This document shows positions 5,710 through 49,729 of a stretch of 64,000 bases of DNA, piece by piece. Under the pieces are notes generated by a model. The model was not told where the DNA came from, did no database searches, and was given only the letters and a program-made list of their open reading frames with translations. A program made the translations under genes and the position numbers. Where the stretch lies: the NCBI GenBank assembly GCA_016193335.1, contig JACPSK010000001.1, positions 175,926-239,925 on the forward strand. Reading direction: 5' to 3'. This DNA comes from Candidatus Magasanikiibacteriota bacterium (GTDB lineage Bacteria; Patescibacteriota; Patescibacteriia; Magasanikbacterales; UBA922). Numbering within the stretch: position 1 is the stretch's first letter; every line of letters starts with the position of its first letter.

Positions 5710-5728
5710 AGACGCGTACCGACGGTAT

Positions 5729-16049: not shown

Positions 16050-17174
16050 TTATTGTATTTCTTTTAGCAAGCCTTGCTCACGCATAGTCTTTTCCGTTAC
16101 CCTAAGAATTGAAGAAACATTTTCAAACTCTGTAATCCATTGCATATAATCATGCACCATATCTTCCAAACCAAAACGAGGCTCCCAACCCAAAGACCGG
16201 AGTTTATCGATATTCATGAGCGCGTGGCGGGATCCTCCCACGCGGTATCTATTGTTGATTTTGGGTTCAAAAGGGACAGCGGCCTCTTTGGCCACGCGCT
16301 CGGCCAACTCAAGGACACGAGTTCTCTCACCGCTTCCCACATTAAAAACTTCAAAATTCGCTTTTTCATCTTCGAGAACACACAGATGCGCCCGGGCCAC
16401 ATCCTGCACATGCACAAAATCTCGGATCTGTCCGGCGTCTTCATTCATTTGAATAGCTTCTTTATCCAAGACATTGGCCGCGAAGGCTCTGAGAGCCCCT
16501 GAATAATAATGCCGAAATGATTGCCTGGGACCAAGCACAATACTGTAGCGCAAAGCCACTCCGGGAATGCGGTACTGTCTTCCCAAAGTCATAAGTAATT
16601 TTTCGCTTGCCCATTTCGATATGGCGTAGGGGATGTTCGGATGAAGTTCGTCGTCTTCACGTTCTGGCAAAGGCTTTACTTCCTGTCCGCAAACGGGACA
16701 GTGCTGTTCCCAATCGCCCTTCTTCATGCGCGCTTCACTGCGCGGCGGGAGATACAGCAGACCGTGCTCCTCGCATTCAAATTTTCCTTCTCCGTAAACA
16801 GACTGGGAAGACGCCATGATAATTTTTGTGATAGACAATTTTTTATCTTCTATGCATTCAAAGAGCAAGGCAAGACTTTTTAGATTCACGTCTATATAGG
16901 TGCTGAAGTCAAGATGATAATCCATGTACGCGGCCAAATGAATCACCGAATCTATGCCTTCAAGAGCTTTGAGCCAGTCTGCCTTTTCGCGCACATCGCC
17001 CCGCATGAATTCAGCTTTTTTATGTATCCAATCCGGTAAAATCCCATTATGAGTCGGGGGGAGAAGAGAATCAAAAATACGAACCCTATACCCGGCCTCA
17101 AGCAAAAGATCGGCCACATGGGAACCTATGAACCCCGCACCACCGGTAAGAAGGACATGATGTTTATCCTTCAT
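16050..17174 (-). CDS. NAD-dependent epimerase/dehydratase with internal zinc-ribbon insertion
   Basis: [13 protein letters not shown] Rossmann motif, a YxxxK motif (YAISK) and a CPVCG-containing insert. Confidence 0.75.
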   Translation of the reverse strand: MKDKHHVLLTGGAGFIGSHVADLLLEAGYRVRIFDSLLPPTHNGILPDWIHKKAEFMRGDVREKADWLKALEGIDSVIHLAAYMDYHLDFSTYIDVNLKSLALLFECIEDKKLSITKIIMASSQSVYGEGKFECEEHGLLYLPPRSEARMKKGDWEQHCPVCGQEVKPLPEREDDELHPNIPYAISKWASEKLLMTLGRQYRIPGVALRYSIVLGPRQSFRHYYSGALRAFAANVLDKEAIQMNEDAGQIRDFVHVQDVARAHLCVLEDEKANFEVFNVGSGERTRVLELAERVAKEAAVPFEPKINNRYRVGGSRHALMNIDKLRSLGWEPRFGLEDMVHDYMQWITEFENVSSILRVTEKTMREQGLLKEIQ

Positions 17175-27145: not shown

Positions 27146-28819
27146 TCAATTTAAACGACGGATAATAATCTCAGGCCCAAGCTGTCGAGTTCTCAACAGA
27201 TTCGGCAAGCCGCCGTTAAACCCGTCGGTAAAAGGCAGGCCTTCCGGCGTCTCATCTCCGTGAATGTATTCCAGTTCGGCCCCTGAGGCGAGAAAGGAGG
27301 AATCAGCTTTTTTGCTCAATAAAAATTCAGGGTTAAAAACAATATATTCATATCCCTGGGTTTCCAGATAGTCGGACAAATGAGCAAAAAAAGAAGAATC
27401 GGAAACCGCTTCCAGATTCAAAGCATGAAATGCTTTTCTATTTTGTTGAGTCATTGTCAATTGCTTTTCGGCCTTATCCGCGTTCCGCAAGGCTTGGGGC
27501 TGGATGGATTCGAGCTCCATAACCGCAGATGGGAGACCGGGCAAGCGAGTAAGCGGAGCAAGGACAGCAATCTTACTGCCGCCAGAAACCTCTCTGTATA
27601 TCCAATCCAAGGCCTGAATTCTGGAGTCATTTCGCAAAAACAGCAGATCGAGATAGAGAAGCGGCGCAATCATCAAAGCTATGAGAGAGAAAACAAGGAA
27701 AAACTGAAATCTTCTTCTAAGTCGCTGAGATATACACCATAACCCAAATCCGGCACATAAAGCAAATAGAGGATAAAAAGGAAGAATGTAGCGATCCATG
27801 TTGAGAAACGAATAATAAAATATGGCGACATACGAAGCCAAAAAAATAATCCCGACAAAAAAAAGACGTTTATACTTTTGAAAACCGGCCAAGGCTCCAA
27901 AAAATGCAAAAACAGAAAGCAAAGGATCCCCCTTTATCACACTCCGTATATACATCCAATAATCGTGGAACAAACCGCTCAATGTTTTGTGATAAAAAAT
28001 AGAGTCAGGCGCGTTTCTCGCCACAAAGAAAGGCTGGGGCCATAATACATATACCAGTAACACCAAACAAACAAAGACTGCTATCGACCCCCAAAACCAT
28101 AACGTCTTGACATCTTTGAACAAAGACCGCCGATCATAGATCAGATACCAAAGCACGATAAAAAGCGCTGTCAGACCCATTTGGGGAGCTATACCCACCC
28201 CCATGCCGCTCAGAATTGCCGACACGAAATAGCGTTTGGCAGAAGGCCATTCTTCATGGAGCAAGACGAGCATAAGCGCGGATAACAAAAAAGCCGCATA
28301 TATCCAATGCCGGGCCCAGTGGGAAAAATTACTGTGCAAAAATGATAGGGCCAAAAAACCGGCCGCGTAGAGAGCCATGGTCTTGTTCTTGAACAGACGA
28401 AGGCCCAGCGCGTAGCTGAGGTACACGGTTCCCGTGCCGACCAGAACCGCCAAAAAACGCGCCATCAAAAAAAATGCCGAAGGGTCACTGCGCATCAAAA
28501 GACTTAGAGTGTTTACATCCACACCTTTTATGAAAAAACTGATGCCGATATATGCCAAAAAGGGAAACAGGTACAAATAAGAGATAAAAGGAGTGTAATA
28601 AAATGTTAAAGCGAACACTTCTCTATGCGCAGCTGGAATTATGGTCTTGAGTTCCAACATTTTAAGAGCACCAAAGATCAATGTTGGTTCATCTCCGACG
28701 AGCCAGAGTGGCAAGCCGAAACCGATGCCCGTGAGTCGAATGATAAAGGCGACAATGAGGATAGCCACAATGAGCGCCTGGGGATACTTGTTTAAGATAC
28801 TTCTCATATGTATTCTCAT
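27146..28819 (-). CDS. GT-C-type glycosyltransferase (ArnT/PMT_2-like)
   Basis: LVGDEPTLIFGALKML matches the ArnT DE..Y/F..IA..ML loop motif after TM1. It has about 12 TM helices plus a C-terminal soluble domain. Confidence 0.65.
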   Translation of the reverse strand: MRIHMRSILNKYPQALIVAILIVAFIIRLTGIGFGLPLWLVGDEPTLIFGALKMLELKTIIPAAHREVFALTFYYTPFISYLYLFPFLAYIGISFFIKGVDVNTLSLLMRSDPSAFFLMARFLAVLVGTGTVYLSYALGLRLFKNKTMALYAAGFLALSFLHSNFSHWARHWIYAAFLLSALMLVLLHEEWPSAKRYFVSAILSGMGVGIAPQMGLTALFIVLWYLIYDRRSLFKDVKTLWFWGSIAVFVCLVLLVYVLWPQPFFVARNAPDSIFYHKTLSGLFHDYWMYIRSVIKGDPLLSVFAFFGALAGFQKYKRLFFVGIIFLASYVAIFYYSFLNMDRYILPFYPLFALCAGFGLWCISQRLRRRFQFFLVFSLIALMIAPLLYLDLLFLRNDSRIQALDWIYREVSGGSKIAVLAPLTRLPGLPSAVMELESIQPQALRNADKAEKQLTMTQQNRKAFHALNLEAVSDSSFFAHLSDYLETQGYEYIVFNPEFLLSKKADSSFLASGAELEYIHGDETPEGLPFTDGFNGGLPNLLRTRQLGPEIIIRRLN

Positions 28820-28946
28820 GCATTTTGATTTAATGAAACCTTTTCCGTAATCACGGTATTGTGGTACCACTCGCTCCGAGCAGGCATCCACTATGGAAAT
28901 ATGCCTAAGCTATTCGAACAAAAGTCACAAATGGCCAAACACGATG

Positions 28947-29504
28947 TCATAGCAAGTCAGCATCAGGCCGTTTTAACCATTCTTCAAAACTCAAAGCAAC
29001 GCTGTCCCTTTCAGACACGATATAATCTGTCGCGCCAGGCCAGTTTATTTTGAGCAAGGGATCATTCCAAACGATACTGGCTTCAGCCGCCGGATTATAC
29101 AAAGATGTATAATGATAAGACATGAAGGCCTCCGAACCGAGCACTTGGAAACCGCAGGCAAAACCCGGCGAGGCATACAACTGTTTCTTGTTTTCTTCAC
29201 TTATCTCGATGCCGAACCATGCGCCAAAACTGGGCGATGATTTTCTAATATCCACAGCCACCACAAAAGCGGCTCCACGGGTGATCCTCATCAATTTGCC
29301 AAGCGGCTCTTTCCACTGAAAATGCAGCCCGCGTATAACTCCCCTTTTAGAATATGAACAATTTTCTTGGACAAAATCCAAATCTAAACCGCATTCTTTG
29401 AATTTATCTTTGTGAAACAATTCCATGAAATATCCCCGCGTATCTCTGAAGCAATTCGGCTCGATGACATAAAGACCTTCAAGTGGTTTTTCCAGTATGC
29501 GCAT
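28947..29504 (-). CDS. rmlC: dTDP-4-dehydrorhamnose 3,5-epimerase family cupin (RmlC-like); it may act on another NDP-sugar such as GDP-heptose
   Basis: GVIRGLHFQ (RGLH motif) and a length of 185 aa. Confidence 0.7.
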   Translation of the reverse strand: MRILEKPLEGLYVIEPNCFRDTRGYFMELFHKDKFKECGLDLDFVQENCSYSKRGVIRGLHFQWKEPLGKLMRITRGAAFVVAVDIRKSSPSFGAWFGIEISEENKKQLYASPGFACGFQVLGSEAFMSYHYTSLYNPAAEASIVWNDPLLKINWPGATDYIVSERDSVALSFEEWLKRPDADLL

Positions 29505-29522
29505 ATATGTTAGGGGATAGTC

Positions 29523-29738
29523 CTAATACCATTGGCCTGAAGATTGTTTTTGATAATGGTCCTGAAATTCTCTGCGTCCCTTTATCTTAAGCCACCAATC
29601 TTTATGTTCAAGATACCATTCCACCACATCCCCCAAACTCTGGTCTATTGGCAAAGCTGGCGCCCATGTAAACTGAGATCTGAGCTTATCGCCATTCACG
29701 GCATAACGCGTGTCCGCTCCCGGACGGTCGCTGATATG
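29523..29738 (-). pseudogene. C-terminal fragment (about 70 aa) of dTDP-glucose 4,6-dehydratase (RmlB)
   Basis: ISDRPGADTRYAVNGDKLRSQF...VVEWYLEHKDWW matches the RmlB C-terminus DRPGHDRRYAID...TV.WY..N..WW. The upstream part of this ORF is antisense to the transposase remnant and unrelated to RmlB. Confidence 0.6.
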
Positions 29739-29744
29739 TGTGGT

Positions 29745-29909
29745 ATGTTCAGCTACCGTGATACTGATCTCGATACGATCACCGCCGCCCAGATCAGACG
29801 CGTTGAAGACAAAATCAATAACCGACCAATGAAGTGTCTCAACTATCAAACTCCGAACGAGGCCTATGCAATTGAAATGAACAAAATTATGCCTAACCGC
29901 AATCTATGA
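29745..29909 (+). mobile_element. IS30-family transposase, C-terminal remnant of about 55 aa
   Basis: DTDLDTITAAQIRRVEDKINNRPMKCLNYQTPNEAY matches the IS30 transposase tail ...EL..IA..LN.RPRK.L.+KTP.E.F. No DDE core is present. Confidence 0.55.
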
Positions 29910-29916
29910 AATTAAT

Positions 29917-30228
29917 TTATTTTTTTATCCACAGGTTGCACTTGTAAATTGAATGTGGGTAGTTTGATCGCCCACGAGCCTCAGCGGTTTTCAAGTATTC
30001 ACGGTCCTCGGTATTGTATAATTTTACCACTTCATCAAGGGTCAATGTTTCCCTGGTTTGAATAAGTCCGCAACGGATACATTTTACCATTGGCAAGCAA
30101 ACGCCATAATCTTTATCAGTGACTTTAAAAGTGGCGCACTCATATAAACTAACATACCGCTTAGCAAAGGATACAGGAGTTAGGTCACCTTGGCAAATTT
30201 CGCAATTGATACTCAGATTATTTGGCAT
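29917..30228 (-). pseudogene. N-terminal zinc-ribbon fragment of an NDP-sugar C-methyltransferase (TylCIII-like)
   Basis: CEICQGDL...KCIRCGLIQ resembles the CxxCG...CxxCGLVQL putative zinc-binding N-domain of sugar C-methyltransferases. The SAM-binding domain is missing, and the ORF stops 8 bp from the IS remnant. Confidence 0.45.
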
Positions 30229-30239
30229 AGCGCTAAAAA

Positions 30240-30815
30240 TTATTGAACAAGCAGAGAAAAATTACTGCCCTTTACTAAAAAAATACGGTCAGCTGCATCC
30301 ATAAGTGGACGATCTTCTTCTGAATCGGTAAAAACATCAAAATGTTCCAGATTCTCGGTTTTTAAACGATCAACTTTCGCCATATGCCAACAAGTAGAAA
30401 ATCTATTAAAATCAGGATCATACTCCGTACCATGAACAATCCAGCCTTTAATATTTTTGCGGGCTAAAATTGCTTCAACCAAATCTTTCCAGGCCGCGGT
30501 TGACACATACACACGGTTATATTGTTCGTTTATATACCGAACCAAATCTTCATTAACAAAGGGAAATAATTTTTCCGCATACTCATCGGTAACACGCGCC
30601 GCGCCGCGGCGGTAGACTTCCTTAAATAAAGCATGACGAAATTTTCTCCTAAAAAAAACTTGACGCTGATACGGCAAAATGAATCGCACGCCAAACAGGA
30701 CGATTCCCCACCATAAAATAATCGGGGAACTATAGGTATAGCCGTCACGAAGCATACGCATGGTGGAGTCAACCGTAAGCAAAGTTTTATCAAAATCAAC
30801 CACTGCCGTAGACAT
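30240..30815 (-). CDS. HAD-superfamily hydrolase (phosphatase)
   Basis: Motif I VVDFDKTLL (DxDxT) and motif IV FTDSEEDRPLM. Confidence 0.65.
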   Translation of the reverse strand: MSTAVVDFDKTLLTVDSTMRMLRDGYTYSSPIILWWGIVLFGVRFILPYQRQVFFRRKFRHALFKEVYRRGAARVTDEYAEKLFPFVNEDLVRYINEQYNRVYVSTAAWKDLVEAILARKNIKGWIVHGTEYDPDFNRFSTCWHMAKVDRLKTENLEHFDVFTDSEEDRPLMDAADRIFLVKGSNFSLLVQ

Positions 30816-30824: not shown

Positions 30825-31766
30825 TTATTGACGGATAGAGTATCCTATAAAATGATTTTCCAGAAAAAAATGCAATCTGGGAAAATCAACCCACAACAAT
30901 AAACTGACACTCATGGTTAATAATAAAATGTACAGCATAAACCACCTCTCTCGATAAAGTTTTTCCGGCCGCTGTGCTGGTGAATCAGAATTCATCCCCA
31001 AAGACAGATACCAACCGAATAAAATTGAAAATAAAGGCAAACTCAAAAGAAGTTCAATCCGGTGTTTAATTATAAATACACCAAAGAAAAAGGCAAAACT
31101 CATGGCGTAAAAAAGAATGGATACAAGCAAATTATTTTCCGTGTAAAAACGAAATGACCGACGATAGAGTACGGCCGTACTCCGATCGCCGATAAACCGC
31201 AATTCGGCATACCGCTTCACGGCCATAAGGAATGCCCCGCCCATCCAATATGCAACCAATAAACTCACAGGTGGTAAATAGGCGCTGGTCACAACAAACC
31301 ATCCTAAGGCAAAACGGATAGGATTATTAATTGATTCGGATAATACATCCATGTACATTTTGTCCTTGGTTCGAAACGGTTTTACATTATATAAAAAACC
31401 CATGACCAAAAGAAACAACGCAGCAGCCAAAAAATAATAAGAAATAAAATAGGCAATACTTAAACCTGTTACCGCCAATACTGCATATTCAACAAAAACC
31501 AACTTTGCCTTGATTCTACCTGTTACCGACGGACGATTTTTTTTAAGGGGGTGATATTTATCAAATTCAGCGTCCAGCCACTCATTTATGACATAGTTAG
31601 CGGAAGCAATGATACATACACTTATCAAAGCCAAAAGACCTACCGCAAGCAGACGGTAAGAGAACGTATCGGTCAGCCACATAGCCACGACTACACCGGG
31701 CAACATGAATATATTTTTAAACCAATGTGAGGGTCTGGCAATAGAGATATAATCTTTTAAACTCAT
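30825..31766 (-). CDS. UbiA-family polyprenyltransferase-like membrane protein (candidate polyprenyl-phosphate phosphoribosyltransferase)
   Basis: About 8 TM helices. An N-x-x-x-D-x-x-x-D motif (NEWLDAEFD) follows an RP...W...F..PG segment, and a second acidic motif KDKMYMD is present. The gene abuts the HAD hydrolase gene. Confidence 0.55.
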   Translation of the reverse strand: MSLKDYISIARPSHWFKNIFMLPGVVVAMWLTDTFSYRLLAVGLLALISVCIIASANYVINEWLDAEFDKYHPLKKNRPSVTGRIKAKLVFVEYAVLAVTGLSIAYFISYYFLAAALFLLVMGFLYNVKPFRTKDKMYMDVLSESINNPIRFALGWFVVTSAYLPPVSLLVAYWMGGAFLMAVKRYAELRFIGDRSTAVLYRRSFRFYTENNLLVSILFYAMSFAFFFGVFIIKHRIELLLSLPLFSILFGWYLSLGMNSDSPAQRPEKLYRERWFMLYILLLTMSVSLLLWVDFPRLHFFLENHFIGYSIRQ

Positions 31767-31859
31767 AAAATCAAGCTCTAAAAAGACCCTGAAACTACAA
31801 ACATAATAACATAAACCCATCTTTATGACAATGGCTGCGGAATCAAAAAACAGCGGCTT

Positions 31860-34074: not shown

Positions 34075-35415
34075 TCAGCTGAATAACCGATACAGATGTT
34101 CGTGTACCGCGGGCCAGAAAAAAATAAAATCCAACACACTTATAATAAGCAGCAAAGAAAAAACTCTATACAAAGCCTTTAAAGCCTCTTTCTTTCTTTC
34201 ATAGAGCAGAACCAGAAAATAGGATCCAAAAAGCGCCAAGAAAGGATAAATTTGAAGACGATACCTGGATTCTACCACGCTTGGTAAAAGAAGGATCGGA
34301 GCGCTCAAACCGAGCGCGATACAATAATACAGTATGGTGCTTTTCTCTTTTTTAGAAAGCAACATTCCCGAAAAACCGCTCACAAACAAAATTCCTATGC
34401 CGATAAGCGAGCTCAAAACAAAGGCTATTTGCCCGATCCCGTTTTGATAAAACCAAAAACCCATCGGGCGTATTAAACTGAAATAACGGAGAAATCTGAG
34501 AAAAGACAGCTTGATAAAATGTGAGGGATCTTCTTTCAGAACCCGCAAAAATTCCTGGCGTGCTTTTTCTTTTAAATCAAAGGAACCTTCCTCGTTGAGA
34601 TATTCTGTCAAAGGATTGTACCCACCCGCGATCTGCCCGCCATTGGCGCTTTCAATATTACCGATCCACAAATTATATTCTCCGATTAGAGTGGTGGGAA
34701 TAAAATCCCCATAAATCGCATGATTTCGGAGAGCCCAGGGAATCAAAACGATAACAAAAAAACAAAAAAACAAAAACAACTGCGCATAATATTTACGTAT
34801 TGCATAAAAAAACAAAAAAACAGGCACAAAAAGCAATATGGGCGGCCGTGTGAGTATCGCGAGGCCTGTCAGGAATCCGAGTAAGGCCGCGGCGATTTTT
34901 CTCTCAGGTCGGCTAAAAATCTTCACAAAGACGTAGAGTGTCGCTATCGTAAAAAAAAGATACAAGGTCTCAGTCATAAGCATCGCGGATATTTCTATCA
35001 AATCAGGATGCAAACCAAAGAGACCCAAGGCCACAAAAGCGATGGCATTTTTGCTCGTTTGTTTCTCGAACACCATTCTCGCGATCAGAAAAATAAGGTA
35101 CGCGGAAACTGCGTGCAGGAAAGCTTGAATAAGCCATACGGCCTCGTAATAATGGCCGAATACAAAATATATCCCGGCGAGAAAAAATTCATAAGCAGGC
35201 CCTGCGCGAAGTATGGCGCCATCAAATTCATAGGATTTCGCCGCATCTTCCCTGAAACCCTGGCCATCAAGAATATTCAAAGCTATTCGATCGTATGCTT
35301 TCGCGTCGACCACGGGGTTTATCTTATAATAAAAAGAGTATCCTGCGGATAGCAAAAAAATGACAAGTAAAAACGCGGCGAGCCATTTACGCTCTTTGTT
35401 CCATTTCATAAGCAA
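34075..35415 (-). CDS. GT-C-type glycosyltransferase (ArnT/PMT_2-like)
   Basis: VVDAKAYDRIALNIL aligns with ArnT DEARYAEISREML. An LTRPPILLF segment resembles the KPPL motif. Many TM helices. Confidence 0.6.
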   Translation of the reverse strand: MLMKWNKERKWLAAFLLVIFLLSAGYSFYYKINPVVDAKAYDRIALNILDGQGFREDAAKSYEFDGAILRAGPAYEFFLAGIYFVFGHYYEAVWLIQAFLHAVSAYLIFLIARMVFEKQTSKNAIAFVALGLFGLHPDLIEISAMLMTETLYLFFTIATLYVFVKIFSRPERKIAAALLGFLTGLAILTRPPILLFVPVFLFFYAIRKYYAQLFLFFCFFVIVLIPWALRNHAIYGDFIPTTLIGEYNLWIGNIESANGGQIAGGYNPLTEYLNEEGSFDLKEKARQEFLRVLKEDPSHFIKLSFLRFLRYFSLIRPMGFWFYQNGIGQIAFVLSSLIGIGILFVSGFSGMLLSKKEKSTILYYCIALGLSAPILLLPSVVESRYRLQIYPFLALFGSYFLVLLYERKKEALKALYRVFSLLLIISVLDFIFFWPAVHEHLYRLFS

Positions 35416-36367
35416 TCATCCGTTCTATCAAGGACAAAAACGAATACTCAGGTTTCCAGCCAAGAGAGACAGCTATGCGCTCATTGGACGCGCCGAGTTC
35501 ACTCGTGTCTCGCTTGCGTATAAAATCAGAATTGACCCGAACATAAGCCTCCCAATCCTTAATCCCCAGTGCTTCAAAAGCCACCTTAAGAAGTTCTCTC
35601 AGAGTATGCTGTTCTCCGCTTGAAATAATAAAATCTTCAGGCTTCTTTGCTTGGAGCATCATCCACATGGCCCGCACGTAATCACCCGCGAATCCCCAGT
35701 CTCTGCTCACATTGAGGTTCCCCAGCTCCAGATATTTTTTATTTCCTTTCTTAAGATCAGCCACTCCTTTGATAATTTTTTTAAACACAAAGGTATCCGG
35801 CCGAAGCGGAGATTCGTGTTGAAACAAAATGCCGTTTACCGCGAATAGCCCATATTGTTCACGAAAATTGATTACGGAAAAATGCGCGGCAAGTTTTGTG
35901 ACGCTGTATAAATCGATAGGTTTAAACTCAGATTGGTCTTCGGTGACTCTCAGAGTTTCGAGTTTTTCTTGTTCATAGATTTTACCGCTTGAAGCCTGAA
36001 ATATCCGTGTCTCTCCGCTGTAACGCCGCGCTGATTCAAGCATATTCACCACTGCATCACAGTTTGTCTGAAAAGCTTCGAGCGGCCGCTCCCAGACTCC
36101 CGTCACGCTACTTAAAGCGGCGAGATTGTAGTATTCATGGGGCTGCGTTTTTTTGAGTATATCTTCTACGCGAGGATAATCCCTCACATCGCATTCCAAA
36201 ATTTCCACCTGATTTTGGATACCAAAATGATCCAAACGCCACAAAGCCTCCCGAGTGGCACGGCGGCACAGACCAATCACCCGGTAGTTTTTTCGCAACA
36301 AAAAGTCCGCTAAATAAGCGCCATCTTGGCCTGCGATTCCGCTAATCAGAGCTATTTTGTCCGCCAT
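35387..36367 (-). CDS. gmd: GDP-mannose 4,6-dehydratase family (may act on GDP-heptose)
   Basis: ALISGIAGQDGAYLADFLL and ILFQHESPLR blocks match Gmd, whose consensus is ILFNHESPRR. Confidence 0.8.
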   Translation of the reverse strand: MADKIALISGIAGQDGAYLADFLLRKNYRVIGLCRRATREALWRLDHFGIQNQVEILECDVRDYPRVEDILKKTQPHEYYNLAALSSVTGVWERPLEAFQTNCDAVVNMLESARRYSGETRIFQASSGKIYEQEKLETLRVTEDQSEFKPIDLYSVTKLAAHFSVINFREQYGLFAVNGILFQHESPLRPDTFVFKKIIKGVADLKKGNKKYLELGNLNVSRDWGFAGDYVRAMWMMLQAKKPEDFIISSGEQHTLRELLKVAFEALGIKDWEAYVRVNSDFIRKRDTSELGASNERIAVSLGWKPEYSFLSLIERMIAYEMEQRA

Positions 36368-42839: not shown

Positions 42840-43784
42840 TTATCCAAACAAGCGCTTCTTAAAATCCGCTATGGTTTTCTCCAAGCCCTGGTCCAGAGAG
42901 ATTGTCGGCTTCCAGGCCAAACGTTCTCCTGCCAGATCTATGTTCGGCTGTCTTTGTTTCGGGTCATCCTCCGGAAGATCCCGATACACGAGCCTGCTCG
43001 AAGAGCCAATGGCAAGAATAATTTTTTCCGCTAGTTCTTTAATCGTAAATTCAGAAGGATTGCCAAGATTGACCGGCCCGAGGAAAGAAGCCTCGGTTTC
43101 CATCATTTTGACAAGTCCCCCCACCAAATCGTCCACATAACAAAAACTTCTGGTCTGAGAGCCATCGCCGTAAATCGTAATATCTTCCCCTTTGAGGGCT
43201 TGCAAGATAAAATTCGACACCACGCGGCCGTCATTAAAGGTCATCCGGGGCCCATAGGTATTGAATATACGTACGACTTTTATTTCCATGCCGTGCATCC
43301 GATGATAATCAAAACACAGAGTCTCAGCGCAACGCTTGCCCTCGTCATAGCAAGCTCTCGGCCCGATGATACTTACATTCCCTCTGTAAGCTTCGGTCTG
43401 CGGATGAACTTCCGGGTCTCCATATACTTCGGAGGTGGACGCTTGCAAGAGCCTTGCTTTATGTTTTCTCGAAAAACCCAAAACATTAATCATGCCTATA
43501 GTGTTGGCTTTGATGGTACGCACCGGATTTTTCTGGTAATGAATGGGGCTCGCGGGGCAGGCTAAATTATATACCTGATCTATATGCTCTTGGATTTCAA
43601 AAGGTTCAATAATGTCTTTCGGCAAAAAATGAAATCGCGGATTATCAAGAAGCCGCGTTATATTTTCTTTCCCGCCGGTAAACAAATTATCAAGACAATA
43701 TACTTCATGTTCTTTATCCAAAAGCCGTTCACACAAATGAGAACCTATAAAGCCCGCGCCGCCGGTTACCATTATCTGAGACAT
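42840..43784 (-). CDS. uxs: UDP-glucuronate decarboxylase (UDP-xylose synthase)
   Basis: [40 protein letters not shown] and [15 protein letters not shown] blocks are characteristic of UXS/ArnA-C-type decarboxylases. Confidence 0.75.
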
Positions 43785-43930: not shown

Positions 43931-45250
43931 TTACAGGATGGCGGGGCAGGTTACCACAGAACCGAGTACAACTCCGTTTTGAACCGTTATAGAGGTGCAA
44001 GCGGTCGCGTCATCAGAGTCGTGCATTATTATTTCAGGTCCGCCGGTGCCACCATCATAAATCATGAGCGTTGTGCTACCGGTGGTATTTTTTATGGTAC
44101 TCGTGGCAGAATGCACAGTGCCGGACGCGTGCACGTCATTCCAAGAAAAAGTTGGACCTGTAAAAGAACCCCATTCACCGATATCAAAACTATTGTTAAG
44201 GGCAGGTCTCAGAAAACCGCTGAAAGAAGCGGAGTTTATATCTATGTCCACCGAGCCTCCACCGGTTTGCCCGAATGTAACGTTTCCAAAAAAAGTGGTC
44301 GCTCCGGTAACTCCCAAGGTGGAACTTACATTCACAAAACCGTCAACAGATAAATTATTCCCTACATTCAGGTTCCCAGAGTTAGTTTTTGCTCCCGTGT
44401 TATTCACAGTCCCGAGCCAAACGGTGCCGCTGGAATACATATCACCCCAGGCAAACCCATAGGCTCCAAAGTCACCGGCGTCATTGCCGGATGGCATAAG
44501 AAAATCTACAGAGGTCATCGTAGAACTTACATAATCCAAGAACGCGGTGCTGGACGCGTAGATATTTTTTGCCGCTTTGCCAAAACTACCGAAACTGGCG
44601 CGATTATTTACGGTCAGCAAAACACCATCTCTAAGGAGTATGCATGGTGCTCGTTACATAATCCAAAAAGGCCGTACTCGATGCATAAATATTGCCAAGC
44701 GCGTTGCCATAAGCGCCAATGCCAACCGAATTGTTCGAACCGAGAAGCACCGTGCCATTTATGGTCAAGGCCGTACTGCTTACATAATCCAGAAAGGCCG
44801 TACTCGATGCGTAGATGTTGTCGAGGGCATTGCTATAAGCGCCAATGTCCACTGTTTTGTTTGATCCCAAAAGCACGGAACCGTTTATGCTTAGTGCAGT
44901 CGAACTTACATAATCCAGAAAGGCGGTGCTGGACGCGTAGATGTTGTTATACGAGAGAGAATATGAACCCAAATCAACCGTGTTGTTGGCATTCGGATCC
45001 AAATCTCCTGCCAAACGCGCGGTAACCGTGAGGCTGTCGCTCGTGGCATTGCCAATGGTAGTACTGCCTTCTATACTCAAGGCCGAGCTTAAAGTGGTGT
45101 TTCCTATTACGTCAAGCGTGCCACCTATACAGATACATCATTGCCCACAGTCGTCACAGCAAGGGACGATTCAGAAATCAAGAACGACAAAACCACAATA
45201 AATAAAAATCCCAAACAGGCGAATTCTATTCTAAAAAGTGGTCTTGCCAT
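43931..45250 (-). pseudogene. Frameshifted paralog of the secreted phage-tail-fibre-repeat protein (47446..49158)
   Basis: From the ATG at 45250 the reading is MARPLFRIEFACLGFLFIVVLSFLISESSLAVTTVGNDVSV, then a stop. This is a signal peptide plus the same TTVGN(N/D)VSV start as the 570-aa protein. The repeat protein continues in two other frames (ORFs 44631..45080 and 43931..44620). Confidence 0.6.
44640..44990. repeat. Three tandem 114-bp (38-aa) coding repeats
   Basis: CTTACATAATCCAGAAAGGCCGTACTCGATGC... recurs at about 44660, 44775 and 44895. The protein repeat is D.GAYSNAL.NIYASSTAFLDYVSSTAL.ING.VLLGSN. Confidence 0.55.
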
Positions 45251-45314
45251 ATTTTTTCTAAATATAAAAAATATAATTAATTGATGAACAAAAAAATAAA
45301 ACTTTCTATCCCAC

Positions 45315-45764
45315 CTAATTCGCAGATTCCGAATATAACCTTACAATATCAACAATTTTATCCGCCACCGCATCGTATATTATAACTCCATGAGGATAAT
45401 AAAGCAATTTATCTCCGTTTTTCACATATTGAAAATATATGGGATTTTGCTCATGCAAGCTGGACGCGTCAAGCACCGTAGCCACCGTAATTTTCCCCTC
45501 AGGGAAAAGCATATGACGTGAGACAGCTTGTACCACAAGATCCGCCTCAGAACCTGATCCTGTTGTGTCTTCTGCAGGCTCTGTAGCCTCTGTTTGTCTG
45601 CTTTTCAAAAAATCTTGAGAGTTTTCTTGAAAAGGTACCTTTGCTTTGTCCTCAACACCGCGATCAAGCATATACCAGGCCAAAATTACGACTACCAAAA
45701 AACTGATGAGAGACACTGTAACAGAGCCGTACAAAATCCTTTTCTGATTCAAATTCTGATTCAT
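45315..45764 (-). CDS. Small type-II membrane-anchored protein, family copy 2 (paralog of 49262..49729)
   Basis: An N-terminal TM helix, then the conserved C-domain VQAVSRHMLFPEGKITVATVLDASSL...NPIYFQYVKNGDKLLYY...IVDIVRL, shared with 49262..49768. Confidence 0.55.
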   Translation of the reverse strand: MNQNLNQKRILYGSVTVSLISFLVVVILAWYMLDRGVEDKAKVPFQENSQDFLKSRQTEATEPAEDTTGSGSEADLVVQAVSRHMLFPEGKITVATVLDASSLHEQNPIYFQYVKNGDKLLYYPHGVIIYDAVADKIVDIVRLYSESAN

Positions 45765-46006
45765 ACATTCGCTTCCTAAAAATTTAAACTTTCAGAAGAA
45801 CAGGCATATTATAGATCTTTTTCTATGCCTAGTACATCCTTATTTGTGTACAAATATAAGTCTACCTCTTCACAACATATTTTGAAAATCCTACGAAGTC
45901 AGCCCGCTTCGCTGCTTTGCCGACTTGAGTCCTGACTGAAAAAATTGTCAATAAAACAAGCCCCTGAATCCAGAGGCCTGTAATATCCGATAGAGCTTTT
46001 TGATTT

Positions 46007-47404
46007 TTACAGTCCGCTCAAAACAGCTCCTTCGCTATATGTTTCAGAGTCTTTCAAAGTAACTATCCGGTCCCAGCGATATTTCAATTTTTTGAATGTT
46101 TGTTCGTCCTTTATATGACGCTTTATCTGTTTGCTGGAATCAGCCGGATCCGGTTCAAGACGATAAACCTTGGAAGAACCTTTATATTTAACCAAAGTAT
46201 AATTCGGATGATGATCCGTATAACTTATCTCTGACCCGACTTTATATTTGTCGAGCAAGGCGCCATCTATGTCTTCAATCCAATCCCATTTATAACTGAG
46301 ATCATTAAATACTTTTTCAGAATTTATCCAATATTTATCAGGACCCAGAAGCAAGTATACTTTAGGATCTGTGACGATTTTTGCCAAGGCTCCGTATTTT
46401 GGATCGTAGAGAGGCCCCCATGGCATGAAACCCAGCGAATCATTAGTGATACTGTCCAATTTCGCTTTCGTGGTCGTCATGACACTGCTCCATCCGGTGA
46501 GATAGCTGAAAAATTTATCCGGACTGCTGAAAGGTCTTTTGGTACAGTTTTCAGTTACATAGTAAACAGCGGGTGACGCGGAATGTTTGTAAGCTTTTTT
46601 CAGAGCCAAAGCACACTCTTTCTTGCCGCCAGCTGCCAATTCTGAGAATTGCAGTTTTGGATTGCCTTTTTCATCCAAACCGTAATAGGTTACTCTCAAA
46701 TCCGCTTTGCCATTGCCATCACTGTCTATATCTTTCGAAGCACCTTTATCAAGGGTAACACTCACCGGTTTTGACTCTATCACCATGCTGATAGTGCTTT
46801 CCGTGGCGCTTGAAACAGTAACCGTGTGAGAGCTGGATCCTACACTTATTGATGTGGGAGAGCTGACACTTACTGAAACAGTAACCGGAATTCCTACGGG
46901 AGCTGGAGCTTCAGCGGCCGGGGCAGGAGCTTCAGCCTCAGCCTCAGGAGCCGGAGCCGGAGCCGGGCTAGCGCCCGGGCCTGATCCACCTCCGCCACCT
47001 CCGCCGCCCCCACTACTACCCGCGCCTGAGCTCGCCGTACAGGTGGTCTGAGGAGTTACCGTAATGGTCTGAGAATCAATATCATTGGTACAAAGAATCG
47101 TGAGCTTAGATGTTGAGGCGCAGGTTATCGTTTTTTCACCGCAGGTATTGCTCGATAAGCCAAATCCGTCTCCATTGGCTGAAGTGATCTCCACCACAGA
47201 GCCGGTAGCCACGGTAAACACTACATTATCTGTATTAACCGTGTAAGACTCCACGCGGGTGGCATTGGTAAGCGTATAGGTGTGTCCTGTGCCCGCGCTC
47301 AAACTTACGGTTGTAGTCCCATCATGCGTGACCGTGTTAAAGGCTCCAAGCGCCGCGGCGGGTACGAGGAGAAAAACCGCGATAATTGTGAATACTTTAT
47401 GCAT
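46007..47404 (-). CDS. Secreted protein with poly-Gly and Pro/Ala/Glu-rich linker, C-terminal domain of unknown function
   Basis: Signal peptide MHKVFTIIAVFLLVPAAALGA. Low-complexity segments GGGGGGGGGS and PAPAPAPEAEAEAPAPAAEAPAP. The C-terminal domain of about 270 aa has no motif I can name. Confidence 0.55.
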   Translation of the reverse strand: MHKVFTIIAVFLLVPAAALGAFNTVTHDGTTTVSLSAGTGHTYTLTNATRVESYTVNTDNVVFTVATGSVVEITSANGDGFGLSSNTCGEKTITCASTSKLTILCTNDIDSQTITVTPQTTCTASSGAGSSGGGGGGGGGSGPGASPAPAPAPEAEAEAPAPAAEAPAPVGIPVTVSVSVSSPTSISVGSSSHTVTVSSATESTISMVIESKPVSVTLDKGASKDIDSDGNGKADLRVTYYGLDEKGNPKLQFSELAAGGKKECALALKKAYKHSASPAVYYVTENCTKRPFSSPDKFFSYLTGWSSVMTTTKAKLDSITNDSLGFMPWGPLYDPKYGALAKIVTDPKVYLLLGPDKYWINSEKVFNDLSYKWDWIEDIDGALLDKYKVGSEISYTDHHPNYTLVKYKGSSKVYRLEPDPADSSKQIKRHIKDEQTFKKLKYRWDRIVTLKDSETYSEGAVLSGL

Positions 47405-47445
47405 AATGCTTTTTGTTTTGCTTGGGTTATACTTCAACTACCGGA

Positions 47446-49158
47446 CTAGAAATCACATGGATAGGTCCCGCTTGATACCGTCGAAGTGACAAACTCTCCA
47501 TTCACACCGAAAGAAAAATTTATACAGCCGCTTCCATCGCTTTTTTCCATTATGATGGCCGCTCCGAGCGAAGCTTTGCCCGAACCCATCACCAAATTGG
47601 AAACAGCCACAGAATTAACAAGAGTGGAAGTTGTCATATAGACTGTTCCTGAAGCGACGAGATCATTAAACGCCGCTCCGGCGCCGGCGCCGGAAACCAA
47701 GACACCGACATCATAGGTGTTATGTGTCCCCGGAGCTACTGAAGAAGCAACTCCTCCGTTAAAGGTAATAGTATCAGCGCCTGAATCTCCAAGAGTCACA
47801 TTGCCGTCTGCGCTCAGCACACCTGCCCAGAGAGTACCGGAAGAGAAAACATCATTCCAAGCGTTGCTGAACGCGCCGAGATCAAGATCATTGTTTGCAG
47901 TCGGTTCGAGTCTGCTTGCAAAACGAGAGTTGAGATAAATGGTATCAGACGTAGTGGCATTGCCCAGAGTTGTATTGCCGCCAAACCAGCCGGTGCCGTC
48001 TACCGCGAGGTTGTTGCCAACGCTCAAATCACCGGCACTGGTGCCAAGAGTGGCTACGTCTACGGTGCCGAGAACGATGGTGTTGGAAGCGAAAATGTCC
48101 CTCCAAGCTCCACCGTATTCTCCGGAGTCATACAAATTATTACCCACCGGTACCACAGTACCCGTAATGTCAGCGGCTCCAAACAAAGTCAAAGTACCGC
48201 TTGCAGAGCTATTCCCGATGGTGGTATTTCCGTAAAGCTGTGAAGTCCCATCAACAGCGAAATTATTACCCACACTCAAATCTCCGGCAGCGGTGCCAAG
48301 AGTAGCTAAGTTAACAGTGCCAAGCACGATAGTATTCGAAGCGAAAAGGTCATTCCAGGCGTTTGAATAGGCGCCAAGATCATTTCCATTGTTATCAGTG
48401 GGCTGAACTGACCCGGCCACACGAGCGTTGAGATACAATACATCTGTGGTAGTGGCGTCCCCAACAGTCAAGTTGTTTGAAATGGTAACGCTTGAACTCC
48501 ATACTGCCAAAGTGCCTACATACAAAGTCCCGGAAACATACAGATCTTTCCAAGCATTTGAGTAGGCGCCAAGATCATTTCCATTGTTATCAGTGGGCTG
48601 AACTGACCCGGCCACACGAGCGTTGAGATAAATGGTATCAGAAGTAGTGGCATTACCAAGAGTAGTGTTGCCGCCAAACCAGCCGGTGCCGTCTACCGCG
48701 AGGTTGTTGCCAACGCTCAAATCACCGGCACTGGTGCCAAGAGTGGCTACGTCTACGGTGCCGAGAACGATGGTGTTGGAAGCAAAGAGATCGTTCCATC
48801 CTGAACCATAAGCTCCGAGGTCATAGGTGTTGTGAGTGCTCGGCAAAACATTACTTGCCACGTCAGCGGTTATTGTAACCGTGTCGCTGGCAGAATCTCC
48901 GATGGTCGAGTTCCCGTTCAGGGTTGTAGCCCCAGTCACGGTTGTGGCTCCGGTAACGTCGAGCGTACCTCCAAAGGTTGCAGCCCCAGTGATGGTTGTA
49001 ACTCCGGTTACGTCGAGTGTGCCTCCAACAGAGACATTATTACCGACTGTAGTCGCGGCTTTGGAACTGCTTGGAGCGAACAGCAGAGCAACCGCTATAC
49101 CCAGTCCTGCGTAGAGAAGCAACATTCGTGCCTCTCTCCAACTTAGTGATTCAGACAT
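47446..49158 (-). CDS. Secreted beta-rich repeat protein with phage-tail-fibre-like repeats
   Basis: Signal peptide. Recurring DLGAYSNAW(N/K)DL(F/Y)AS.T..LGTV units resemble the LG....W..+Y phage tail-fibre repeat. The C-terminus has two cysteines (GSGCINF...YPCDF). Confidence 0.65.
   Translation of the reverse strand: MSESLSWREARMLLLYAGLGIAVALLFAPSSSKAATTVGNNVSVGGTLDVTGVTTITGAATFGGTLDVTGATTVTGATTLNGNSTIGDSASDTVTITADVASNVLPSTHNTYDLGAYGSGWNDLFASNTIVLGTVDVATLGTSAGDLSVGNNLAVDGTGWFGGNTTLGNATTSDTIYLNARVAGSVQPTDNNGNDLGAYSNAWKDLYVSGTLYVGTLAVWSSSVTISNNLTVGDATTTDVLYLNARVAGSVQPTDNNGNDLGAYSNAWNDLFASNTIVLGTVNLATLGTAAGDLSVGNNFAVDGTSQLYGNTTIGNSSASGTLTLFGAADITGTVVPVGNNLYDSGEYGGAWRDIFASNTIVLGTVDVATLGTSAGDLSVGNNLAVDGTGWFGGNTTLGNATTSDTIYLNSRFASRLEPTANNDLDLGAFSNAWNDVFSSGTLWAGVLSADGNVTLGDSGADTITFNGGVASSVAPGTHNTYDVGVLVSGAGAGAAFNDLVASGTVYMTTSTLVNSVAVSNLVMGSGKASLGAAIIMEKSDGSGCINFSFGVNGEFVTSTVSSGTYPCDF
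47961..48110. repeat. Intragenic direct repeat, copy A (about 150 bp)
   Basis: Near-identical to 48641..48790. It encodes IFASNTIVLGTVDVATLGTSAGDLSVGNNLAVDGTGWFGGNTTLGNATTSDTIYLN. Confidence 0.7.
48641..48790. repeat. Intragenic direct repeat, copy B (about 150 bp)
   Basis: Near-identical to 47961..48110. A second shorter pair lies at about 48378..48445 and 48572..48640. Confidence 0.7.
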
Positions 49159-49261
49159 AATGTACTATATTTTACCTATGTATTTAAAAGTAACATAGGT
49201 TTTAATTTATAAATAAATGTAAATTTCTCAGAGAATAGGAACCCTTATTTCTTCGACCACA

Positions 49262-49729
49262 TTATTCGGTAGTCTTCTTGGATCCTGGTCCAGTAACCAC
49301 TTGCTCAGGAAATAACCTTATAACATCCACAATAATATCTTGCTCCAAATCGTACACAATCAGACCCAAAGCGTAGCGTATAATTTTATCCCCATTCTTA
49401 ACGAACTGAAAATATAATGGATTCCTGGAACGGAGCAAATCCGCGTCCGTAACGGTTACGACCGTAACATCGCTTTGAGGAAGCATAATATGTTTAGAGA
49501 CCTTCTGAACCACTTCCACTACCTCGGATTGTTGATTGTTTGCTGAAGCCTTATCTATATTTAGACCTTCTGCGTTTTTTGCAGGTCCTGCGCCATCCGG
49601 TTTCACGTCTCCCTTGTCAAAAACATACCAAGCAAGTATCAAAACAATCGATAAAGCTAAAAAAGACAACAAAATTGAGGCATACGAAAAAGATTTTTCA
49701 CCCGTAAGATGAAGTCCTTGTTTCTTCAT
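49262..49729 (-). CDS. Small type-II membrane-anchored protein, family copy 1
   Basis: An N-terminal TM helix, then the domain VQKVSKHIMLPQSDVTVVTVTDADLLRSRNPLYFQFVKNGDKIIRY...IVDVIRL. It lies immediately upstream (minus strand) of the fibre-repeat gene. Confidence 0.55.
   Translation of the reverse strand: MKKQGLHLTGEKSFSYASILLSFLALSIVLILAWYVFDKGDVKPDGAGPAKNAEGLNIDKASANNQQSEVVEVVQKVSKHIMLPQSDVTVVTVTDADLLRSRNPLYFQFVKNGDKIIRYALGLIVYDLEQDIIVDVIRLFPEQVVTGPGSKKTTE

Follow-up and report, generated by a model that had tools for sequence, protein, structure and literature searches.

The locus described here raises the question of how about 700 bases of a Candidatus Magasanikbacteria genome came to hold one end each of three genes: an IS30-family transposase gene, the dTDP-glucose 4,6-dehydratase gene rmlB, and a gene for a zinc-ribbon methyltransferase. 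The pieces lie between an intact rmlC and a HAD phosphatase gene in the 64-kb window (the whole stretch of DNA that was analysed), at the coordinates given in Table 1. Genes for a UbiA-type prenyltransferase and the HAD phosphatase are followed on the same strand by the methyltransferase fragment, with gaps of only 9 nt (UbiA/HAD) and 11 nt (HAD/fragment), and the rmlB fragment is separated from rmlC by 18 nt. A first-pass annotation of the letters had read the arrangement as the scar of a decayed deoxysugar operon, made by an IS insertion and a later deletion that removed most of the IS, the 5′ part of rmlB and the 3′ part of the methyltransferase gene.

Table 1. Features of the scar and of the genes on either side, numbered from the first letter of the 64-kb window.
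Feature	Position	Strand	Basis or remark
Scar overall, ~700 bases	29523-30228		Candidatus Magasanikbacteria; IS30 remnant with the first third of a methyltransferase gene on one side and the final quarter of rmlB on the other
Membrane-protein gene (PMT_2/GT-C-like in relatives)	27146-28891	-	Far edge of the extra DNA
rmlC, intact, 185 aa	28947-29504	-	TIGR01221, PF00908; NCBI MBI2989756.1
rmlB 3′ fragment, last 77 codons and native stop (29523-25)	29523-29756	-	About residues 270-346 of a 346-aa enzyme
Joint J1, rmlB interior to transposase-gene interior, opposite orientations	29748-29757		Deletion joint
IS30-family transposase end, last 50 codons and stop, RDTDLDTITAAQIRRVEDKINNRPMKCLNYQTPNEAY...	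29757-29909	+	tblastn and full-length transposase alignments
Right inverted repeat (IRR) of the IS remnant, GGTTGCACTTGTAAATTGAATGTGGG	29934-29959	+	IS30-family motif
Entire IS30-family remnant, 203 bp	29757-29959	+	Transposase tail and IRR combined
Zinc-ribbon class I SAM methyltransferase 5′ fragment, about codons 1-90	29960-30228	-	HMMER and family HMM
HAD phosphatase	30240-30815	-	Pfam PF12710
UbiA-type prenyltransferase resembling decaprenyl-phosphate phosphoribosyltransferase	30825-31820	-	PF01040; NF008977, E 1.3e-20

Such an arrangement could in principle be a chimera of mis-joined reads from different genomes, or a set of chance similarities. Contig ends do gather within the scar, at 29922 and 29951 inside the IS remnant, and the transposase piece by itself gives a weak match to the family HMM NF033563 (model positions 242-267 of 267, E 0.035). 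However, both joints are crossed at 100% identity in two NCBI MAGs and in contigs from several independent run-level assemblies. The 18 aligned Logan contigs, from 12 runs, are 100% identical over whatever part of the scar each covers, further contigs carry the same RmlC protein (12) or the same HAD protein (14), the second NCBI MAG is identical across the scar, and a contig of another project is 99.95% identical. Because the sequence is identical in the two NCBI MAGs and in all run-level contigs compared directly, the scar is no assembly artefact, and the targeted comparisons detailed below (E 8e-30 for RmlB, 1e-8 for the transposase, and 1.7e-28 for the methyltransferase) leave the chimera-or-chance explanation with practically negligible probability. 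Apparent variants dissolved on inspection: two contigs considered as carrying a longer gene upstream of rmlC (L099 and L100) were rejected, being 100% identical to the window and ending inside the IS remnant, and a 159-aa RmlC call in the second NCBI MAG (L158), considered as a different allele, is likewise 100% identical and differs only in its start call. The clustered contig ends hint that part of the IRR also occurs in another sequence context, and this branch of the contig graph at 29922-29951 could be a co-existing second allele or a related IS that is still present.

The plus-strand piece belongs to the C-terminus of an IS30-family transposase, as had been proposed, with 50 codons and a stop in place of the 55 residues first counted. 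A tblastn search recovered 116 plasmid records at ~40% identity (best E 2e-5), and among the 15 plasmid matches listed most are annotated as IS30-family transposases. Three full-length IS30-family transposases (311-332 aa) match the window only at 29757-29903, through their last 48-49 residues and with E values of 1e-8 to 1e-6; the homology begins abruptly at 29757, and with these three references matching nowhere else in the 64 kb, there is no trace of the HTH and DDE core. The searches made recovered no close full-length relative of the tail. A word-indexed protein search with the 52-aa tail was empty, which we regard as technical rather than as absence because a 101-aa ORF that includes the tail (a Logan call) is present in that database and was also not returned.

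The right end of the element is marked by the motif GTTGC-N9-TTGAAT-N5-end, which occurs at the right end of E. coli IS30 and of two of three plasmid IS30-family elements, with a variant in the third. The motif has a single match in the window, at 29935-29954 on the plus strand, compared to 0.11 expected per window, and gave zero chance matches in 1.76 Mb of other loci; it starts 26 nt past the transposase stop in the correct orientation, and the IRR agrees with that of E. coli IS30 at 16 of 26 bases (hand count). By analogy with these elements, the outer IS end would lie at about 29959, placed to within ~3 nt. In all four reference IS30-family elements the IRR overlaps the transposase stop, whereas here it lies 25-50 nt after it. 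An alternative IRR overlapping the stop (~29889-29916), as in the reference elements, shows weak similarity that is explained by coding conservation, and it was rejected, albeit not with certainty, because the full motif sits at 29934-29959 instead. The inverted-repeat search that the first-pass annotation had suggested thus found one end of the element and not the other: no left repeat occurs in the 64-kb window at up to three mismatches to the IRR. The left IS end and its flank, on which a target duplication (2-3 bp in the IS30 family) would be read, are deleted. The original element was probably 1.0-1.2 kb long; E. coli IS30, as measured in a reference locus (L153), is 1221 bp.

The IS right end is also the breakpoint of the methyltransferase gene. 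The 103-aa minus-strand ORF (29917-30228, stop at 29917-29919), which ends 7 nt (8 bp as first described) from the transposase stop at 29909, had been taken as a zinc-ribbon fragment over its whole length, and its CxxC...CxxC pattern is indeed present. Only its ~90 N-terminal residues are methyltransferase-derived, and the final 13 come from reading on past the joint into the IS. In exhaustive HMMER searches, the ORF aligns to the N-terminal ~90 residues of relatives of 294-302 aa (E down to 1e-13), and the family HMM scores it at 85.7 bits (E 1.7e-28) with an alignment that stops at residue 91; the end of homology, at residue 90/91, corresponds to nt 29959-29956 and coincides with the IS right end. 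Each of the 14 family-invariant positions (C9, C12, C50, C53, T37, K39, Y41, Q57, Y71, D75, Y78, R85, S88, and N89) is retained in the fragment. The SAM-binding Rossmann domain, whose LEIGAGSG motif starts near family residue 108, is absent. In other comparisons, a word-indexed search with the 103-aa ORF returned only itself, phmmer against the PDB gave a chance-level match (E 0.17), and Pfam PF08421 (Methyltransf_13) stayed below its cut-off of 31.3 bits, scoring 14 bits (E 0.06) across residues 45-66 alone.

The identity of this family bears directly on whether a deoxysugar operon has decayed here. The fragment had been assigned to TylCIII-like NDP-hexose C-methyltransferases, and the family profile does match TcaB9, 5t64, and TylC3 at ~E 1e-10, through an N-terminal zinc ribbon and a Rossmann methyltransferase domain. 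However, the full-length relatives are of 291-302 aa (the intact gene here would have encoded ~296 aa), with Methyltransf_23 as their sole substantial domain and no C-terminal domain, and the family is only distantly related to the sugar C-methyltransferases. In nine of nine loci examined (L004-L010 and the neighbourhoods of P0029 and P0042) the gene adjoins one for a UbiA-type prenyltransferase, often together with a HAD phosphatase, and tblastn found neither RmlB nor RmlC in the seven genome loci searched (L004-L010). The methyltransferase therefore belongs with UbiA and HAD, not with the rml genes as a TylCIII-type partner, and the notion of a single deoxysugar operon that included it is not supported.

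On the other side of the IS remnant, the ORF at 29523-29849 (minus strand) aligns to model positions 265-320 of 321 of TIGR01181, the dTDP-glucose 4,6-dehydratase family (E 1.5e-13). Its whole-protein score of 50.5 bits falls below the cut-off of 365.1, which the 346-aa RmlB of the closest relative found (locus L103) exceeds at 373.5 bits; the fragment is 51% identical to residues 267-346 of that protein (E 8e-30). The identification as the RmlB C-terminus thus holds, with 77 RmlB-derived codons (29526-29756) replacing the 70 residues first estimated, and the NAD-binding and catalytic parts are absent. At J1, RmlB HMM alignments begin at ORF residue 32-33 (nt 29756-29751) and every IS30 transposase alignment begins at nt 29757, so that neither side of the joint is an IS end. 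A BLASTP alignment of RmlB that runs 4-5 residues further into the IS side was judged to be chance, because the IS30 match is stronger over the same bases (6/9 identical to IS1112a). Since only deletion fuses the interior of a transposase gene to the interior of rmlB, J1 is a deletion joint. With the IRR abutting the end of methyltransferase homology, J1 internal to both of its genes, and each fragment representing one gene end only, the proposal of an IS event and then a deletion, with its three losses, is supported, and the similarities to IS30 transposases and RmlB that database searches were expected to show are confirmed (E 1e-8 and 8e-30).

The adjacent gene had been called RmlC-like and intact, and its product scores 206.4 bits against TIGR01221 (cut-off 155.75, model positions 3-174 of 176), with E 4.7e-59 for Pfam PF00908 and E 4e-49 for solved RmlC structures. 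In L103 the full 346-aa rmlB lies directly upstream of an rmlC whose product is 64% identical to the one here, and rmlB and rmlC were once one unit. A scan of ~58 ORFs of the 64-kb window revealed neither rmlA nor rmlD nor a further rmlB. Four SDR genes in the window (35387-36367, 42840-43784, 2678-3679, and 16050-17174) were considered as a source or paralogue of the rmlB fragment, and none reaches the TIGR01181 cut-off; the one compared directly by BLASTP (35387-36367) gave no match. The rmlC gene is orphaned, lacking an upstream rmlB at the locus, and because of this dTDP-rhamnose synthesis should not be inferred from the locus alone.

Each joint creates chimeric reading frames in which a remnant continues into antisense sequence of its neighbour: 108 aa (29523-29849, minus strand) with 31 antisense-IS and 77 RmlB residues, 101 aa with 51 antisense-rmlB and 50 transposase residues, and the 103-aa frame with 90 methyltransferase and 13 IS-end residues. 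One public MAG record labels the 108-aa chimera a hypothetical protein (MBI2989757.1), and neither the methyltransferase fragment nor the transposase tail was found there as a protein entry; the latter two are best treated as pseudogene or IS-remnant features. None of the three remnants can perform its original function, since the DDE/HTH region, the SAM site, and the NAD and catalytic sites are all missing. The retained codons (90, 50, and 77, respectively) contain no stops and no frameshifts, and identity to the family is 42.3% for the methyltransferase fragment, compared to 42.2% among intact members.

This preservation, with divergence no greater than that of intact members, might suggest that the 103-aa ORF has been kept and is expressed as a small zinc-ribbon protein of the UbiA-HAD operon, all the more as its ATG persists 11 nt after the HAD stop, its invariant columns include the four Cys, and no terminator-like site breaks the operon (a promoter and terminator scan of the locus gave nothing above background). 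However, no homologue sharing its length and end point was recovered: all relatives aligning over most of the fragment are longer, mostly 289-302 aa, with two of only 116 and 196 aa that are possibly incomplete, and the 103-aa protein stands alone in its cluster. The IS end supplies its last 13 residues, the gene is wholly missing in the closest relatives, and a recent event explains the lack of decay equally well. We consider a retained mini-protein very improbable, and take the event to be recent in evolutionary terms and fixed in the sampled population.

Comparison with relatives bears on where the rml genes came from. In the five closest contexts (UbiA 73–79% and HAD 54–71% identical), HAD runs directly into the membrane-protein gene, and no methyltransferase, rmlB, rmlC, or IS lies between them, so that this genome carries 1,348 bp of extra DNA (28892-30239); the syntenic comparison that the first-pass annotation had suggested thus yielded no intact ancestral arrangement. 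Because the closest relatives are without methyltransferase, rmlB, and rmlC, the block could be imported rather than ancestral: the rmlB-rmlC pair, possibly with the IS, would have arrived by horizontal transfer (e.g. as IS-flanked cargo) between HAD or methyltransferase and the membrane-protein gene, and would then have been trimmed by deletions, with no operon always present in the lineage. The locus is indeed mosaic downstream of HAD, with a membrane protein only 35-39% identical to the product of the gene directly after HAD in L084-L090; GC content steps from 0.38-0.41 (UbiA, HAD, and methyltransferase fragment) to 0.44-0.47 (rmlB fragment, rmlC, membrane protein, and AsnB) exactly at the scar; and among the RmlC relatives found none exceeds 64% identity. 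Nevertheless, the methyltransferase fragment stands in its family's usual place by UbiA and HAD and has their composition, which argues that at least this gene was resident. Furthermore, rmlC, the membrane-protein gene, and AsnB share one composition, which makes the higher-GC side a long resident stretch and not a small island, and the 55 bp beyond rmlC (28892-28946) contain neither a 3′ piece of the methyltransferase gene nor another IS end or a direct repeat, so that import would require extra deletions. We regard import as rather unlikely, and the mechanics of both joints would be unchanged under either reading.

Overall, the anatomy favours a scar made in two steps, in which a transposase-made joint between IS and methyltransferase gene was followed by a non-transpositional deletion into rmlB; we place the probability of this reading at about 0.8. 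In the first step, as indicated by the anatomy of the right joint, the transposase would have linked an IS30-family element, by its right end, to the methyltransferase gene at codon ~90. That gene stood behind UbiA-HAD as part of a minus-strand glycan operon, and the joint would have formed either when the IS simply inserted there or through an IS-mediated adjacent deletion reaching into the gene; the SAM-binding two-thirds of the gene would thus have been severed. In the second step, a deletion not made by the transposase would have had one end within the transposase gene, with 50 codons left up to the stop, and the other within rmlB at codon ~270 of ~346; the event is evident in the anatomy, and the mechanism is the one we infer from it. 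The deleted DNA, at least ~2.3 kb in total, would have taken in the IS from its left end over ~80% of its length, the last ~620 bp of the methyltransferase gene, any intervening DNA, and the first ~800 bp of rmlB, leaving three short remnants and an intact, orphaned rmlC. Because no pre-insertion or pre-deletion allele was found, we likewise infer from the remnants what was deleted and in which order the events took place.

The scar is an ordinary one, a known kind of event found here in a CPR genome, and unsurprising to a specialist; it records past IS30-family activity and recent gene loss at a variable surface-glycan locus of a streamlined genome. A more tentative view, against which we would still set the odds, is that the scar is a natural methyltransferase knock-out in a conserved uncharacterised module of zinc-ribbon SAM methyltransferase, UbiA-type polyprenyl-phosphate phosphoribosyltransferase, and HAD phosphatase, in a lineage shedding the methylation step, in which case the closest relatives would represent the clean loss of the methyltransferase gene. 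The module occurs in Patescibacteria, Planctomycetota, Omnitrophota, Fibrobacterales, and Bacteriovoracaceae, and plausibly supplies the many GT-C/PMT_2-type glycosyltransferases of the locus with a (methylated) polyprenyl-phosphate pentose donor. The methyltransferase-UbiA-HAD linkage across phyla is a by-product of this analysis that may merit its own study.

The scar can be set beside several known systems. In comparison to the sugar 3-C-methyltransferases TcaB9/TylC3 (PDB 3NDI, 4RV9, and 5T64), which have 416 aa and NDP-sugar enzymes as genomic partners, the methyltransferase family here is shorter, lacks the C-terminal domain, and is partnered by UbiA and HAD. With respect to the dTDP-L-rhamnose pathway (RmlABCD), the fragment is a true RmlB C-terminus with the same ...KQSxGxWY end as in L103 and the same short rmlB-rmlC spacing as that intact pair, although ~78% of the length of an intact rmlB is missing. 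Within the IS30 family (E. coli IS30, IS1112a, and relatives), the surviving 50 codons align to the extreme C-terminus at ~40% identity, and the IRR core GTTGC-N9-TTGAAT is common to the remnant, IS30, IS1112a, and a Klebsiella element; compared with complete elements, the remnant comprises 203 bp of ~1.0-1.2 kb and lacks the HTH, the DDE triad, and the left repeat. The closest mechanistic parallel comes from experiments with IS30, in which deletions partly removing an IS copy and its flanks, with ends away from the IRs, were judged non-transpositional (PMC9333248). Those deletions arose in laboratory plasmid constructs in E. coli, whereas the present one is a fixed chromosomal allele of an uncultured CPR bacterium with a mechanism read from anatomy only, but the two share the same form: one endpoint inside the IS and away from the IRs, the other in the flank, and one IS end left in place.

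The window is for the most part a single long minus-strand cluster for surface-glycan synthesis, with GT1, GT2 and GT4 glycosyltransferases, several PMT_2/GT-C-like membrane proteins, an asparagine synthase, a heptose-nucleotide pathway, and GDP-mannose-dehydratase-like and O-antigen-ligase-like genes. The product of its UbiA-type prenyltransferase gene (UbiA) matches, at 100% identity, a protein that NCBI places on a 686-kb contig of a Candidatus Magasanikbacteria (CPR/Patescibacteria) MAG, and NCBI accessions MBI2989756-58 cover RmlC, the HAD phosphatase (HAD) and a 108-aa ORF. Along the minus strand, UbiA and HAD are followed by three fragments and then by rmlC, which is intact, as the first-pass annotation had it. 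GC is 0.38–0.41 in UbiA, HAD and the methyltransferase fragment, and 0.44–0.47 from the rmlB fragment onwards, including rmlC and its downstream neighbours. Elsewhere in the window, GC falls sharply to 0.31 at 60001-61000, a 1,269-aa ORF (54164-57973) lies within a higher-GC (0.49) stretch, and six consecutive ORFs (43931-49768) have no Pfam match.

Features of the scar and of the genes on either side of it
Feature	Coordinates	Strand	Remarks
UbiA	30825-31820	-	
HAD	30240-30815	-	
Methyltransferase fragment, in a 103-aa ORF	29917-30228	-	HMMER and family HMM
Candidate IS right inverted repeat (26-mer)	29934-29959		
GTTGC-N9-TTGAAT motif	29935-29954	+	
IS30-family transposase tail	29757-29909	+	50 codons and stop, encoding RDTDLDTITAAQIRRVEDKINNRPMKCLNYQTPNEAY...
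108-aa chimeric ORF	29523-29849		31 antisense-IS and 77 RmlB codons
rmlB fragment	29523-29756	-	last 77 codons and native stop
rmlC, intact	28947-29504	-	starts 18 nt past rmlB fragment
Membrane-protein gene	27146-28891		

The rmlB and transposase pieces proved to be the C-terminal fragments they had been taken for. The former matches positions 265–320 of 321 in TIGR01181 (E 1.5e-13) and is 51% identical to residues 267–346 of the 346-aa RmlB of comparison locus L103 (E 8e-30), itself a genuine RmlB (373.5 versus a cut-off of 365.1). The NCBIfam IS30 model matched the transposase tail weakly, at its end (242–267 of 267; E 0.035); tblastn with the tail retrieved 116 plasmid records, at gene C-termini, most of the 15 listed being annotated as IS30-family transposase, and the tail is the sole match in the window for three full-length transposases (311–332 aa), via their last 48–49 residues (E 1e-8 to 1e-6). 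A word-indexed protein search with the 52-aa tail returned no candidate, although the collection holds a 101-aa protein containing it verbatim, so negatives of this kind with very short queries are untrustworthy. All transposase alignments start at 29757 and the RmlB HMM alignments end at 29756-29751; at this joint (J1) the interior of the transposase gene is joined head to head with the interior of rmlB. Neither a left inverted repeat nor further transposase-like sequence was found in the window. Given the interior-to-interior fusion and the missing left repeat, J1 could not have been made by transposition and is a deletion endpoint.

The second joint (J2), between the right end of the IS and the methyltransferase fragment, is of a different origin. 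Right inverted repeats were derived from three plasmid IS30-family elements and from E. coli IS30, whose left end was verified in a set of 3,541 E. coli genomes. Three of the four reference right ends carry GTTGC-N9-TTGAAT, with 5 nt separating it from the element end, and the fourth, from a Pseudoalteromonas element, carries a close variant. This pattern occurs once on the two strands of the window (0.11 expected), 26 nt past the transposase stop and oriented as a right inverted repeat should be, and has no chance match in 1.76 Mb of unrelated loci; the surrounding 26-mer shares 16/26 bases with the E. coli IS30 right repeat by hand count. The proposed search for IS30 inverted repeats thus succeeded on the right side only. 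By analogy with the reference elements, the outer end of the IS would lie at about 29959. Homology to the methyltransferase family stops at residue 90/91 (nt 29959-29956), coinciding with this end, and J2 is therefore an IS-end joint of the transposase's making.

The methyltransferase fragment was likewise correctly recognised as an N-terminal zinc-ribbon piece, and its family and partners require revision. Pfam gave a single, sub-threshold zinc-domain match for the 103-aa ORF. An exhaustive HMMER search aligned it with the first ~90 residues of 294–302-aa proteins (35–48% identity), which are class I SAM methyltransferases of the Methyltransf_23 type and bear a CxxC...CxxC ribbon at the N-terminus. 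The family HMM scores 85.7 bits, its alignment stopping at residue 91; the ORF has no SAM-binding motif (LEIGAGSG, near residue 108) or anything beyond, and the IS end supplies its final 13 residues and its stop. The family is indeed distant kin of the sugar 3-C-methyltransferases, its profile matching 5T64, TcaB9 and TylC3 over ribbon and methyltransferase fold (~E 1e-10). Against the earlier assignment as an NDP-hexose C-methyltransferase, sugar 3-C-methyltransferases are ~416 aa with a C-terminal domain, whereas the present family is ~300 aa, lacks that domain and is partnered with UbiA. Seven genome loci, belonging to Planctomycetota, Fibrobacterales, Omnitrophota and Bacteriovoracaceae, were examined with flanks of up to 10 kb per side: a UbiA homologue adjoins the full-length methyltransferase gene in all seven and a HAD homologue is present in four; RmlB and RmlC are absent from all these flanks. 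Two UbiA relatives (P0029, P0042) have a 291–292-aa Methyltransf_23 gene immediately upstream of UbiA-HAD; the copy in L156 (linkage at 5056-7613) reaches 166 bits with the family HMM. Overall, a ~291–300-aa zinc-ribbon Methyltransf_23 gene adjoins UbiA in nine of nine loci (Planctomycetota, Fibrobacterales, Omnitrophota, Bacteriovoracaceae and others), usually with a HAD-type phosphatase. In view of size and architecture, UbiA adjacency in relatives, the 11-nt gap from UbiA-HAD to the fragment, and the shared lower GC, the methyltransferase is part of a UbiA/HAD module. The scar is thus at the seam of two functional units, not within the single decayed rmlB/rmlC deoxysugar operon that had been proposed. 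Methyltransferase-UbiA-HAD has the look of a conserved module that is as yet uncharacterised and may produce a modified polyprenyl-phosphate pentose donor. The closest models for the window UbiA are decaprenyl-phosphate phosphoribosyltransferases. In one locus (L154, 6001-8472; UbiA 66% identical), a PRPP-synthetase/phosphoribosyltransferase-like gene lies between UbiA and HAD, an order that fits PRPP-dependent polyprenyl-phosphate ribosylation by this UbiA clade.

Comparison with syntenic relatives did not recover the ancestral arrangement. In the five closest contexts (L084-L090; UbiA 73–79% and HAD 54–71% identical), UbiA-HAD runs directly into a homologue of the membrane-protein gene, with methyltransferase, rmlB, rmlC and IS all absent in between; HAD and this PMT_2-like gene overlap by a few bases, and in L089 they are fused into one 735-aa product. 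Relative to these loci the window has 1,348 extra bases (28892-30239), all accounted for by the three fragments and rmlC. Since its membrane protein is just 35–39% identical to theirs, the locus is mosaic downstream of HAD. Upstream of UbiA, these relatives have two genes that are missing from the window, an MBOAT gene and one for a 378-aa product. Mosaicism of the glycan locus is pronounced among close lineages. Import of rmlB-rmlC, as opposed to long residence, would agree with the lack of both genes in these relatives, but we regard it as improbable. The nearest rmlC found (L103, 64% identity) has an intact rmlB immediately upstream, which shows the form of the lost gene, the short contig limiting context to rmlB-rmlC. 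Among ~58 window ORFs scanned, no rmlA, rmlB or rmlD partner for rmlC was recognisable. The RmlC motif, usually GFAHGF, reads GFACGF in the window (29127-29507) and GFASGF in L103; because the His is also missing there, its loss is lineage-specific and not decay.

The scar is not confined to one assembly. All 18 aligned Logan contigs (12 runs), and a second NCBI MAG as well, match the window at 100% identity wherever they cover the region; several of the contigs compared span both joints, and the exact RmlC and HAD proteins occur on 12 and 14 contigs. A contig from another project (SRR4343435), which stops at 29923, matches with 99.95% identity over J2 and the genes upstream of it. The retained 90, 50 and 77 codons contain no stop or frameshift, and the methyltransferase fragment is 42.3% similar to its family versus 42.2% among intact members. 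From this identity, the intact codons and the family-level similarity, we infer an evolutionarily recent event, fixed in the sampled population. In at least six assemblies the contigs on the rmlC side end at 29951 (five) or 29952; those on the HAD side end at 29922 (three) or 29923 and, in three additional assemblies, at 29931 or 29932 (two). The pattern is also present in a second sequencing project. In paired samples the two overlap by exactly 30 nt, as an assembly at k = 31, the value assumed here, would leave. These ends indicate a de Bruijn graph branch, with the 30-mer 29922-29951 (sub-terminal IS sequence and inner right repeat) present in another metagenome sequence that then diverges. 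The source could be a co-existing allele that departs from this one immediately to the left of 29922, or else a related IS at another site.

None of the three remnants retains the ability to carry out its original function. Together they yield chimeric ORFs of 108, 101 and 103 aa; a record look-up for the MAG found the 108-aa one alone (MBI2989757.1, a hypothetical protein in one MAG record), the others being known from Logan gene calls. No terminator-like site was found in the scar, and read-through to rmlC and downstream genes is therefore plausible. As a phenomenon the scar is ordinary, a fresh instance of a known event type that the first-pass annotation spotted correctly; the gains are the corrected methyltransferase family and partners and, as a modest by-product, the methyltransferase-UbiA-HAD linkage across phyla. 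The proposed order, IS insertion and then deletion, agrees with J2 at the IS end and with the interior-to-interior J1. J2 would go back either to plain insertion of the IS into the methyltransferase gene or to an adjacent deletion, mediated by the IS, that extended into this gene, with the same product, and a later deletion from the IS interior into the rmlB interior would have created J1. The estimated losses are ~269 of 346 codons from the rmlB 5′ part (0.8 kb), ~206 of 296 from the methyltransferase 3′ part (0.6 kb), and 0.8–1.0 kb from the left of a 1.0–1.2 kb element (E. coli IS30 measures 1221 bp), or at least ~2.3 kb plus any DNA once between the methyltransferase gene and rmlB. In laboratory work on IS30, deletions were recovered that took out part of an IS copy along with flanking DNA and whose endpoints did not lie at the repeats; the authors considered them non-transpositional (PMC9333248), and J1 matches this class of product.
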